Part shown: in pieces, positions 3,001-12,000 of the stretch | How the letters are laid out: each line of letters starts with the position of its first letter | Position numbering within the stretch: the stretch's first letter is position 1 | Program-made: the position numbers | Assembly: GCF_054482525.1 (NCBI RefSeq) | Contig: NZ_CM137006.1 | DNA: 64,000 bases | Reading direction: 5' to 3' (one strand)

Positions 3001-6000
3001 TACTAAATTAAGAAAGCCTCTTGGTCAGCTTTAATAAACCCTGCACTTATCTGGTTAGAGCATTTCGGCATTAGTTTCACTATGCAAACATTAACCATAG
3101 CTAATGATTTATAGCCATATAAACCATTAGTCGCTCTTGACTTTTCCTGACACTTCCCTTGTTCGCAATAATATTCTGTTTAGTCGCTGTTTATAAATAT
3201 CATGCATAATGAAATCGTCATGTTATTTAGCGACATAAAATGTCTTTGCAAATACTCTCTACAACAAGTGCTGCAATAAACTTGTTGTGATTAGGTGTCC
3301 TTGTAATTTAAAGATATTATCGTTCTTCGTGAAATGTAATAACCCTGGAAACTATATTCTCAGGGCAACAACCAATTAAGAATGATTCTTGTTTTATAAG
3401 CAATAACAGAATGACTTAATTGTTAACTCTCTTTATTCAGCTACTTAAATATAAATTTTGGAGAATTATGAAACTCAAACATGTCGGTATGATTGTCGTT
3501 TCTGTGTTGGCGATGTCGTCTGCTGCGGTAAGCGCAGCCGAGGGTGATGAATCAGTAACGACCACTGTTAATGGCGGTGTTATTCATTTTAAAGGTGAAG
3601 TGGTAAATGCCGCTTGTGCGATTGATTCAGAATCAATGAACCAAACGGTTGAGCTGGGTCAGGTTCGTTCTTCTCGCCTGGCAAAAGCGGGTGACCTCAG
3701 CTCTGCCGTTGGCTTCAATATCAAGCTGAATGATTGTGATACCAATGTTTCCAGTAATGCAGCTGTTGCATTCCTGGGTACTACTGTCACCAGTAATGAC
3801 GATACCTTAGCGCTGCAGAGTTCAGCGGCAGGCTCTGCCCAAAATGTCGGTATTCAAATTTTGGACCGTACGGGGGAGGTATTAATACTTGATGGTGCCA
3901 CTTTTAGCGCTAAAACCGACTTGATTGATGGCACGAATATACTGCCATTCCAGGCTCGTTATATTGCTCTCGGGCAGTCAGTAGCTGGTACTGCAAACGC
4001 TGATGCGACCTTCAAAGTTCAATATCTATAATTCAATCTTAAGATGGCTATACGTCATCTGAAATTGAAACAGGGTGTGTGTTGCATGGCTACGCACACC
4101 CGAGCAATTCACCAATGTTCATCTCATTATTAATGAGGAATAGTTTGTGTTTTGGAGCGGTATGAAAAAATCACATAATATCTAAACGATCAATAAACAA
4201 CAGTAGTTAAACTTACTGTTATTTAAAATATTTACTTTGTAGCAAGGTTTTCCTATTAAAAGAGAACCAACATTTATTACAAACGCATTAAGTCTGGAAA
4301 CCCGGCGAGTCGCCAATGTATTAGCAACATTTACCGATTGTCTGATGTAACGGTTTCCCCGCTTATCCTCTTAACACATGGAGAATGCATCAGATGCAAA
4401 CTACGCGTACCCCCTACTCTATTTCCTTTATGGCGACAGTGTTACTTTTATTGCTCTTTGCTTGCCATAGCACCGTTGCCAACGCAGCTGTCGCACTGGG
4501 TGCGACGCGGGTAATTTATCCGGCAAACCAGAAACAGGTTTTATTGCCTGTCACGAATAATGATCCTGCCAGTGTCTATCTCATTCAGTCATGGATAGAA
4601 AATGCAGGTGACCAAAAAGACACCCAGTTTGTCATTACGCCACCGCTTTTTTCCATGCAAGGTAAAAAAGAGAATACGCTGCGGATAATCAACGCCACTA
4701 ATCATCAGTTACCAGGCGACCGTGAAAGCCTGTTCTGGGTTAATGTCAAAGCTATTCCTGCTATGGAAAAAGACCAGAAGAATGAGAATACATTACAGCT
4801 GGCAATTATTAGCCGCATAAAAATGTTTTATCGCCCCACGAACCTGGCAATGGCACCTGAAGAAGCGCCTGCAATGCTTCGGTTTCGTCGCAGCGGTAGC
4901 AAACTTACTCTTATTAATCCAACGCCCTACTTCATTACCGTAACAAATATGAAAGCAGGAAATAGCAATCTCCCAAATACCATGGTGCCGCCAAAAGGTG
5001 ATGTATCGGTGGATATCCCGCATGCTGCAACCGGGGATATCAGTTTTCAGACGATCAATGATTACGGTGCATTAACTCCGCGTATTAAGGCAACCATGCA
5101 GTAAACCAGTGACCTAATTAATAATAAACTCAATCGGAATTAATAATGACAGCCTTTCGTGCCGCATTTAAGGCATATCGTATGCATCAGGTATTACTAC
5201 TGCCTCGCTTTGCACGGCTTACCATTGCCCTTGGCTTAGCAACTGCGGTTTTTCCCGTTGACGCAGAGTATTATTTTAATCCACGGTTTTTAAGCAATGA
5301 TCTTGCTGAATCTGTCGATTTATCCGCCTTTACTAAGGGACGCGAGGCACCACCTGGTACATATCGGGTCGACATTTATTTGAACGACGAATTTATGACT
5401 AGTCGGGATATTACTTTTATTGCAGATGATAATAATGCAGATCTCATCCCATGCCTGAGTACAGACCTTCTTGTCAGTCTTGGCATAAAAAAATCAGCAT
5501 TATTAGACAATAAGGAACATTCGGCAGAAAAACATGTGCCGGACAACAGCGCATGCACACCACTTCGGGATCGTTTGGCTGACGCATCATCTGAGTTTAA
5601 TGTTGGTCAGCAACATCTATCACTCTCCGTTCCGCAAATTTATGTTGGCAGAATGGCTCGCGGCTATGTTTCTCCTGATCTGTGGGAAGAAGGAATAAAT
5701 GCTGGGCTTCTAAACTATAGTTTTAATGGTAATTCTATTAATAATCGTAGTAACCATAATGCAGGAAAATCCAACTATGCATATTTGAATTTACAGAGTG
5801 GCATCAACATTGGTAGTTGGCGACTGCGCGATAACTCAACGTGGAGTTATAACAGTGGGATTAGCAATTCATCTGACAGCAATAAATGGCAGCATATCAA
5901 TACGTCGGCTGAACGTGACATTATTCCCTTACGCTCACGCTTAACGGTAGGTGATAGTTATACCGATGGCGATATTTTTGATAGTGTGAACTTTCGTGGC

Positions 6001-9000: not shown

Positions 9001-12000
9001 GTCGATGGCGGGTCAAGTATTGGAGCAGGTACAACCTCTGTTTATGTTAATCTCGACCCTGTAATACAACCGGGCCAGAATCTGGTTGTAGACTTGTCTC
9101 AGCATATAAGTTGCTGGAATGATTACGGCGGCTGGTACGACACTGATCATATAAACCTGGTACAAGGCTCAGCTTTCGCAGGCTCTCTACAGTCATATAA
9201 AGGATCGCTGTACTGGAATAATGTGACCTACCCCTTCCCGTTGACGACAAATACTAATGTATTAGATATTGGTGATAAGACACCGATGCCATTACCGTTA
9301 AAACTCTATATTACCCCAGTCGGGGCGGCCGGTGGAGTTGTCATAAAAGCCGGGGAAGTTATTGCCCGTATTCATATGTATAAAATTGCCACGTTAGGAA
9401 GCGGAAATCCGCGTAATTTTACGTGGAATATTATTTCAAATAACAGTGTTGTTATGCCAACAGGCGGCTGCACTGTTGATAGTCGTAATGTCACCGTGAA
9501 TCTCCCGGACTTTCCTGGAAGCGCAGAAATACCCCTTGGCGTATATTGCTCAAGCGAACAAAAGCTCTCATTTTATCTTTCGGGTGCCACCACTGACAGT
9601 GCCCGACAAGTGTTTGCTAACACAGCACCAGATGCAACAAAAGCATCGGGAGTGGGTGTCTCTCTGATGCGTAATGGAAAAATACTGGCTACGGGAGAAA
9701 ACGTCTCCCTGGGGACAGTAAATAAAAGCAAAGTACCTCTGGGTTTAAGCGCAACCTATGGACAAACAGGAAACAAGGTTGCAGCCGGAACAGTTCAGTC
9801 AGTCATTGGTGTCACTTTTATCTATGAATAATTGTGATTTTGACATTAGTCTATGCGTTCCATTCACGAAAATTGTGCGGATAATTATTTTGTGAAGGCT
9901 ATTATCCTACACTTGTAAGAAAATCCGCGCACAATTGAAGCCAGAGTCTTATTTTTTATATTGAAAAACATGTTAATTTAAACACTATGAGAGATGATGC
10001 TTAACTTATCGTATTTATACCATTCTATTATTTAACGATAATAGGTTAAAAATAGATAGAGAGTAGTCCCCTACTCTTATATATCCATATTGACGATAAT
10101 CCCTTTGTATATACTGTGCATCATCGCTATTACAAATCCTAATAATTCATTTCCACACAGGATAAGCAGATGAAGAAAAAAATTGAATCCTACCAGGGAG
10201 CTGCCGGTGGATGGGGTGCTGTTAAATCCGTAGCAAATGCAGTACGTAAGCAGATGGATATACGCCAGGATGTTATTGCCATGTTTGACATGAATAAGCC
10301 AGAGGGCTTTGACTGTCCGGGATGTGCATGGCCAGATCCTAAGCACAGTGCGTCATTCGACATTTGTGAAAACGGCGCAAAAGCAATCGCCTGGGAAGTC
10401 ACGGATAAGCAGGTAAATGCCTCTTTCTTTGCTGAGAATACGGTTCAATCATTACTTACCTGGGGAGATCACGAGCTTGAGGCTGCGGGGCGTCTCACCC
10501 AGCCTTTGAAATATGATGCCGTCAGCGACTGTTACAAGCCATTAAGCTGGCAACAAGCTTTCGACGAAATTGGCGAACGCCTTCAAAGCTATAGTGATCC
10601 CAATCAGGTTGAATTCTATACTTCGGGCCGCACTTCCAATGAAGCTGCCTTTCTTTATCAGCTTTTTGCTCGTGAATACGGGAGCAATAACTTCCCCGAC
10701 TGCTCCAACATGTGCCATGAACCGACCAGTGTGGGTTTGGCAGCGAGTATCGGTGTAGGTAAAGGGACCGTGTTGCTGGAAGACTTTGAGAAATGCGATT
10801 TAGTCATTTGCATTGGGCATAACCCTGGTACAAACCACCCTCGCATGTTGACTTCGTTGCGCGCTTTAGTGAAACGGGGAGCGAAAATGATCGCCATCAA
10901 TCCTCTACAGGAACGTGGCCTGGAGCGATTTACCGCACCGCAAAACCCGTTTGAAATGCTGACGAACTCTGAGACTCAGTTGGCCAGTGCCTACTACAAC
11001 GTGCGCATTGGTGGTGATATGGCGTTGCTCAAGGGGATGATGCGCCTGTTAATTGAGCGCGATGATGCTGCAAGCGCCGCAGGTCGGCCCTCATTGCTGG
11101 ATGACGAATTTATTCAAACGCATACCGTCGGCTTTGACGAGCTACGCCGTGACGTTCTCAATTCCGAGTGGAAAGATATCGAGCGTATTTCTGGACTAAG
11201 TCAGACTCAAATCGCCGAACTGGCTGATGCATATGCCGCTGCCGAACGCACCATTATCTGTTACGGAATGGGGATCACTCAGCACGAACATGGTACCCAG
11301 AATGTACAGCAACTGGTCAATCTGCTGTTGATGAAAGGTAACATTGGCAAGCCTGGTGCGGGTATCTGCCCACTACGAGGTCACTCTAATGTACAGGGCG
11401 ACCGAACCGTCGGTATCACCGAGAAACCGTCTGCAGAGTTTCTGGCTCGCCTGGGTGAGCGCTATGGTTTCACCCCACCTCATGCACCTGGACATGCTGC
11501 AATTGCCAGCATGCAAGCAATATGTACGGGGCAGGCTCGAGCATTGATCTGCATGGGGGGCAACTTTGCACTGGCAATGCCAGATCGGGAAGCGAGCGCT
11601 GTACCGTTAACGCAATTAGATTTGGCGGTACACGTAGCCACTAAGCTTAACCGCTCTCATCTGCTGACCGCACAGCATAGCTATATTCTGCCGGTTCTTG
11701 GGCGTAGCGAGATTGACATGCAAAAAAGCGGTGCGCAGGCGGTAACCGTTGAGGATTCAATGTCGATGATTCATGCCTCGCGTGGCGTGTTAAAACCCGC
11801 CGGTGTAATGCTGAAATCAGAGTGTGCAGTGGTCGCGGGTATCGCGCAGGCGGCACTACCCCAGAGCGTGGTAGCCTGGGAGTATCTGGTGGAAGATTAT
11901 GATCGCATTCGCAATGACATTGAAGCTGTGCTGCCAGAATTCGCCGACTATAACCAGCGCATCCGACATCCTGGAGGTTTTCACCTGATAAACGCAGCTG

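Follow-up and report, generated by a model that had tools for sequence, protein, structure and literature searches.

A complete F9 (Yde/Fml) chaperone-usher pilus operon next to dif in an Escherichia coli chromosome related to PCN033

A 64,000-nucleotide stretch of an Escherichia coli chromosome (NCBI RefSeq assembly GCF_054482525.1, contig NZ_CM137006.1; hereafter the window, in whose coordinates all positions are given) carries six consecutive genes at 3468-9831. With high confidence, these are identified as a chaperone-usher pilus operon, F9 (Yde/Fml), in complete form; F9 is a paralogue of type 1 fimbriae and of the gamma type. Gene content, chromosomal site, near-identity of the proteins to known F9 proteins, the galactoside pocket of the FmlH adhesin, and the f9 promoter with its 251-nt leader all agree with this assignment, and nothing contrary to it was found in the sequence. 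The operon is real and, as far as its sequence can tell, probably functional, but it is ordinary: the F9/Yde/Fml operon is already known, and the intact form seen here is the common one.

Gene content and integrity

Open reading frame (ORF) calling in the operon gave six plus-strand ORFs with no internal stops. The first encodes the F9 major pilin, f9A/fmlA (3468-4031, 187 residues; Pfam Fimbrial, 6e-31), which carries the label 'fimA' in RefSeq. It is followed by a PapD-like periplasmic chaperone (4394-5104, 236 residues; PapD_N 8e-40, PapD_C 1e-11) and a full-length outer-membrane usher (5146-7797, 883 residues; PapC_N, Usher over 549/549 profile positions at 1e-198, and PapC_C). Two adaptor (minor) pilins come next, the FimF-like ydeS product (7811-8341, 176 residues; Pfam Fimbrial 3e-22, NCBIfam FimF 239 bits) and the FimG-like ydeR product (8354-8857, 167 residues; Pfam Fimbrial 1e-9, NCBIfam FimG 257 bits). 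The last gene encodes the two-domain tip adhesin YdeQ/FmlH (8917-9831, 304 residues; FimH_man-bind over 145/145 positions at 6e-78, plus Fimbrial). In all six products the Pfam domains extend over the full profile length, far beyond chance.

A preliminary description of the window had proposed six uninterrupted genes, including a full-length 883-residue usher and a FimH-like adhesin, and had assigned them to the F9/Yde/Fml locus. The ORFs lie exactly where it placed them. Alignment to reference operons revealed no frameshift or premature stop that it might have missed in the six genes, and the lengths of all six proteins equal those of the O157:H7 F9 proteins. The assignment to the locus was likewise borne out, as the operon adjoins ydeP and its proteins are 98-100% identical to those of O157 F9.

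The RefSeq coding-sequence coordinates of strain PCN033 translate exactly to the six ORFs, with the chaperone start at 4394 as the sole difference. An alternative start at 4385 would yield a chaperone of 239 residues. ATG 4394 is most likely the true start, because a GGAG at 4380-4383 lies 10 nt from it and only 1 nt from ATG 4385; it is also the start chosen by RefSeq. A GGAG is found 4 nt ahead of the pilin ATG at 3468 as well. Apart from these, just one ORF in the region reaches 100 codons (7060-7374, minus strand); it lies inside the usher gene and is a mechanical ORF without support.

The encoded proteins have the hallmarks of the chaperone-usher pathway, namely a PapD-like chaperone and an usher in which the N-terminal, barrel/plug, and C-terminal domains are all present. 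The chaperone keeps the subunit-anchoring residues R8 and K112, and its best solved relative is FimC (3e-88; 58.5% identity to the K-12 protein). The usher aligns end to end with FimD structures, and is 98.3% identical to the O157 usher and 57% identical to K-12 FimD. Each pilin has a signal peptide, a conserved Cys pair (50/90, 38/78, and 39/77 in the three proteins), and a C-terminal β-strand motif with a penultimate aromatic residue (...KVQYL, ...TLEFQ, and ...IYTWQ). The major pilin is 100% identical to its O157:H7 counterpart and 67% identical to K-12 FimA; the corresponding values are 100% and 43% (FimF) for the ydeS product, and 98.8% and 57.5% (FimG) for the ydeR product.

The NCBIfam equivalog models FimA, FimF, and FimG exceed their cut-offs on the F9 paralogues at 3468-4031, 7811-8341, and 8354-8857. 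It is because of such a score that the F9 pilin goes under 'type 1 fimbrial major subunit FimA' in RefSeq. The FimA, FimF, and FimG names given to these F9 genes are paralogue mislabels, an over-call in naming.

The tip adhesin

YdeQ/FmlH consists of a signal peptide (residues 1-24), a lectin domain (mature residues 1-160), and a pilin domain. Its Cys pairs are at 27/66 and 185/211, and its C-terminus reads ...TFIYE. Mature residues 1-160 match the lectin domain of FmlH at all 160 positions, both in 5LNE and in a set of 11 PDB entries that includes 6AOW. As the domain matches solved FmlH structures residue for residue, modeling of its structure was unneeded. Variation relative to other F9 adhesins is confined to the signal peptide and the pilin domain. 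Across phylogroups the lectin domain is highly conserved (0.003 substitutions per site), which indicates purifying selection.

The galactoside ligand residues F1, Y46, D53, K132, N140, and R142 are all present. In the FmlH structures, F1, D53, K132, and N140 hold the terminal Gal of the Thomsen-Friedenreich (TF) antigen, Gal(β1-3)GalNAc, while Y46 and R142 touch the second sugar or inhibitor aglycones (PMC5866590). Identity to K-12 FimH is 48%, and in a global alignment with that protein four mannose-pocket positions are changed (Q133 to K132, N135 to A134, D140 to N140, and F142 to R142).

That FmlH of uropathogenic E. coli binds Gal(β1-3)GalNAc, which the preliminary description had put forward, is reported by Kalas 2018, where the crystallised construct comprised UTI89 FmlH residues 1-160; binding to TF and Tn antigens and a role in chronic urinary tract infection were described for FmlH of CFT073 (PMC5866590). 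The crystallised domain was cloned from UTI89, a strain whose operon is disrupted, and the in-vivo work used CFT073. Cells expressing F9 also bind Gal(β1-3)GlcNAc glycans, for example lacto-N-tetraose (Wurpel 2014, PMC3966885), and binding of O157 F9 to plant xyloglucan has been reported (PMC7766294). Given its identity with the tested proteins, the adhesin of this strain would be expected to bind Gal(β1-3)GalNAc and Gal(β1-3)GlcNAc.

Promoter, leader, and hairpin

The f9 promoter was mapped in CFT073 by 5′ RACE, and comprises a −35 hexamer TAGTCG, an 18-bp spacer, a −10 hexamer CATAAT, and a transcription start at a G from which the ATG is 251 nt away (PMC3966885). The window contains an exact match to these hexamers on the plus strand at 3181-3217 (one match in the pattern search against 0.03 expected), with the −35 at 3181-3186, an 18-bp spacer, the −10 at 3205-3210, and the start G at 3217, again 251 nt ahead of the pilin ATG. 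The promoter was located solely by searching with the published hexamers; a generic promoter and terminator scan, whose counts did not exceed the shuffled expectation, missed it. Five strains share an unchanged −10 hexamer and start site. The −35 hexamer is polymorphic at its final base (window position 3186; alignment A1, column 47), reading TAGTCG in the window and UTI89, as in CFT073, and TAGTCA in O157, K-12, and avian pathogenic E. coli (APEC) O78; the window thus carries the form of B2 strains. Between strains, divergence is greater in the operon's non-coding parts (93-96% identity) than in aligned stretches that include coding sequence (about 97%).

The AT-rich leader (3218-3467, plus strand; 251 nt counted from G 3217) is the presumed target of H-NS. 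The G+C fraction of 3035-3467 is 0.32, compared with 0.44 for the coding region of the operon and 0.475 for the window. In CFT073, H-NS binds the homologous 251-bp fragment and represses f9, and F9 pili appear at 20 °C and are undetectable at 28 or 37 °C (PMC3966885). The low G+C content of the promoter and leader fits this repression, and H-NS would by analogy bind the leader of the present strain.

A G+C-rich stem-loop with a 10-bp stem (4073-4101, plus strand) occupies part of the 362 nt that separate the pilin gene from the chaperone gene. The predicted RNA fold of 4029-4130 has an energy of −34.5 kcal/mol (z = −4.5), which none of 200 shuffled sequences matched, and the loci of UTI89, O157, and APEC conserve the 4073-4101 stem. 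By comparison with the pap and fim transcripts, this hairpin probably stabilises the pilin segment of the mRNA or attenuates read-through.

Other regulatory elements were sought with negative results. A search for a fimS-like invertible promoter gave just short, weak, AT-rich imperfect inverted repeats at chance level, with no recombinase gene flanking the promoter. No Rfam family matched window 1-14000 at gathering thresholds, and no canonical intrinsic terminator was found after ydeQ. The ydeQ-ydeP spacer does contain an imperfect inverted repeat, 9871-9882 / 9923-9936 (AATTGTGCGGAT ... ATCCGCGCACAATT), with a T-rich stretch after it. This repeat may serve to terminate the operon, but its fold is not significant (z = −1.7).

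What is established for chaperone-usher pathways, together with the literature on F9, suggests how these elements would operate together. Transcription from the sigma-70 promoter (3181-3210) would start at G 3217 and yield an mRNA with the AT-rich leader, which H-NS would silence at 37 °C, the silencing being relieved at about 20 °C or when H-NS is absent. The strong hairpin after the pilin gene would probably raise pilin output relative to that of the assembly proteins. The six products would be exported to the periplasm, where the chaperone is expected to cap each subunit by donor-strand complementation via R8 and K112. The usher would then assemble the pilus by donor-strand exchange, taking YdeQ/FmlH first, followed by FimG-like YdeR, FimF-like YdeS, and lastly the long rod of major pilin; this subunit order is predicted from homology to type 1 pili. 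Through its N-terminal lectin domain, the adhesin would bind terminal β-galactosides, namely TF antigen, GalNAc, and Gal(β1-3)GlcNAc.

Prevalence of the intact operon

A megablast search with window 3000-10200 as query located the locus in 5,361 of 5,426 complete E. coli genomes. At least 80% of this 7.2-kb query was covered in one place in 3,588 of the 5,426 genomes (66%), a coverage-based figure and hence an upper bound on operons with intact ORFs. In an evenly spaced sample of 30, 19 covered 99-100% of the query, seven showed the K-12-type 54% pattern, and the rest had other deletions or insertion sequence (IS) insertions. Wurpel 2014 recorded an intact operon in 25 of 42 genomes (60%), and a polymerase chain reaction survey found it in 61% of the members of the ECOR reference collection and in 80% of isolates from urosepsis; intact operons were absent from phylogroup A and present in most strains of B1, E, B2, and D (PMC3966885).

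With 60-66% of genomes intact, the complete form is therefore the majority state in E. coli and probably the ancestral one, K-12 being the exception. The preliminary description had taken the intact operon to imply a potentially functional adhesin. This stands as far as gene integrity and protein identity are concerned, but the interest of the finding was overrated, given how common the intact form is, that it has been described before, and that F9 is annotated in PCN033 (PMC4578781).

Function and alternative explanations

The sequence itself shows that the genes are intact, that their products are identical or nearly so to characterised proteins, and that the promoter and the residues contacting the ligand are present; expression and assembly of the pilus by this strain are predicted from sequence identity with proteins tested in other strains. 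Several points weigh against a pilus that is produced here. In CFT073, standard culture at 37 °C leaves F9 silent (PMC3966885). The usher differs at 15 residues from that of O157. Finally, the main text of a transposon-directed insertion site sequencing study of PCN033 fitness in vivo discusses fimG of type 1 fimbriae and contains 'yde' nowhere, the supplementary gene table lying outside that text.

The alternative that survives best is an operon that is structurally intact yet effectively cryptic in the lineage, in which H-NS silencing is never relieved in the relevant niches, no measurable gain in adhesion or virulence results, and the locus is heading for decay as in K-12 and UTI89. This would agree with the absence of detectable F9 at both 28 and 37 °C in CFT073 (PMC3966885), with the loss of part of the locus in about one-third of complete E. 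coli genomes by several independent deletions or IS insertions, and with the lack of 'yde' in the text of the PCN033 fitness study, where fimG is discussed. We consider it unlikely, although deserving of some weight: the six ORFs, the promoter, and the leader are all preserved without lesion, the conservation of the lectin domain noted above indicates purifying selection, and defined phenotypes are known in CFT073 and O157.

It is very improbable that a hidden missense defect blocks pilus assembly. The usher substitutions would be the place to look, since the protein (WP_024177840.1) has a different accession from the O157 usher, with 15 of 883 residues changed. However, the APEC O78 usher differs from that of the window at 16 residues, so that a similar level of divergence is seen among the functional-lineage ushers compared, and the usher domains are all full length, with no frameshift or stop.

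That the operon is a second copy of the mannose-binding type 1 fimbriae, as the RefSeq and NCBIfam names, the match of the adhesin to Pfam 'FimH, mannose binding', and the rank of FimH, FimD, and FimC as next-closest solved relatives after FmlH might suggest, can be dismissed with near certainty: its products share just 43-67% identity with their K-12 Fim counterparts, the NCBIfam FimC and usher models fall below their cut-offs, the lectin domain is identical to that of galactoside-binding FmlH, four residues of the mannose pocket (N46, D47, D54, Q133, N135, D140, and F142) are replaced, and fimI, fimB/fimE, and any convincing invertible switch are absent, with the 362-nt non-coding gap standing where fimI would be.

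A complete and probably functional F9 operon thus remains the preferred identification. For a strain of the PCN033 lineage to have the complete F9/Fml pilus genes is of value mainly for their correct annotation. Since its lectin domain is identical to the target of published galactoside inhibitors and of FmlH vaccination, such reagents should apply to the lineage.

Chromosomal surroundings

Identity between the window and PCN033 is 100% from 2582 to at least 14200; the latter strain is a porcine extraintestinal pathogenic E. coli of serogroup O11 and phylogroup D for which an F9 fimbrial cluster on a genomic island has already been listed (PMC4578781). Identity to PCN033 resumes at 39500-64000. 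The window is nevertheless not PCN033 itself, as the match starts only at 2582 and another element occupies the left flank.

The point at which identity begins coincides with dif, the chromosome dimer-resolution site of E. coli, matched exactly (28/28) at 2584-2611, about 600 bp upstream of the f9 promoter. It occupies the same relative position in K-12, O157, PCN033, UTI89, and APEC O78. Window 1-2581, which abuts it, belongs to an M13-like filamentous prophage (an inovirus) and forms its right end, with the C-terminus of pI/Zot (1-315), the pIV secretin (323-1588), and a minus-strand phage ORF (2136-2381). In PCN033 the corresponding place is taken by a fragment of ISNCY and a truncated hipA, while APEC O78:H4 E19057 carries a complete inovirus genome between hipBA and dif (L005 3757-9589). 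The best database match to the left flank of the window is just 98%.

Between dif and the f9 promoter lies an 84-residue ORF (2780-3034; Pfam HTH_18, 6e-20) encoding a C-terminal fragment of an AraC-family helix-turn-helix regulator, which RefSeq treats as a pseudogene. It is probably one of the 'hypothetical regulators' that Wurpel et al. noted in the variable 5′ flank of f9, and for which they found no link to f9 control (PMC3966885).

On the 3′ side, ydeP (10170-12449, plus strand) is directly downstream of the operon. The acid-resistance genes ydeP, safA, and ydeO (10170-13730) follow it on the same strand in all strains compared, and this flank defines the f9 locus (Wurpel 2014, PMC3966885). 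The upstream boundary of the site, the hipBA region, is seen in related genomes; the window starts inside the prophage and so does not reach hipBA.

Activity of XerCD, terminus-associated recombination, and integration of filamentous phages all take place at dif. It is tempting to speculate that proximity to this site explains why the locus is a hotspot of independent deletions (K-12 type, UTI89 type, IS insertions) with a highly variable 5′ flank, and that the inovirus prophage could alter H-NS silencing or read-through into f9, but we regard this as doubtful.

Comparison with known systems

The closest systems are the F9 operon of O157:H7 (the ydeQ locus) and F9/Fml of uropathogenic E. coli, which share with the window the order of the six genes and the chromosomal site between hipBA/dif and ydeP. 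Differences from O157:H7 are allelic only, the proteins being 98.3-100% identical; relative to the F9 references in general, the few substitutions fall in the chaperone, the usher, the ydeR product, and the pilin domain and signal peptide of the adhesin. The filamentous prophage at dif sets the 5′ flank of the window apart from those of these two systems.

Two of the strains compared have lost part of the operon. The UTI89 record lacks window positions of about 6665-8560, comprising the 3′ part of the usher gene, ydeS, and the 5′ part of ydeR. This deletion (1.9 kb, junction L003 6609/6610) fuses the usher to ydeR and leaves three intact genes, whose products are 97.9-98.9% identical to those of the window; it agrees with the listing of the UTI89 f9 operon as 'disrupted' by Wurpel 2014 (PMC3966885).

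K-12 MG1655 has the same locus and promoter, with ydeS, ydeR, and ydeQ products 97.7-99.4% identical to those of the window, and represents a degenerate state. It aligns only to window 2825-3289 and from 6571 onwards, so that about 3,281 bp (approximately 3290-6570) are missing, and with them the genes for pilin and chaperone, the greater part of the leader, and about 475 codons at the start of the usher gene. The remnant consists of ydeS, ydeR, and ydeQ, preceded by ydeT′, a piece of the usher whose N-terminus is annotated as missing. The preliminary description had named just this remnant, and MG1655 does not carry the intact operon of the window. Lacking the pilin, the chaperone, and the N-terminal part of the usher, K-12 cannot assemble F9 pili. 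As the deletion begins at about +73 of the f9 transcript (L002 4133-4282 aligned to window 3140-3289), K-12 retains the f9 promoter directly ahead of ydeT′-ydeSRQ, and transcription of the remnant, whose adhesin gene is intact, may continue.

Type 1 fimbriae (fimAICDFGH) have the same chaperone-usher architecture, subunit order, and two-domain tip adhesin of the FimH fold as the window operon, and the FimC, FimD, and FimH structures are its nearest solved relatives after FmlH, at the 43-67% identity to the K-12 Fim proteins given above. In contrast to type 1 fimbriae, the window operon has neither fimI nor fimB/fimE nor a fimS switch, and its sugar pocket is of the galactoside-binding kind (K132, A134, N140, and R142) in place of the mannose pocket of FimH. 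The two also differ in control: whereas type 1 fimbriae are governed by phase inversion, F9 is regulated by H-NS and temperature, as documented in CFT073 (PMC3966885).

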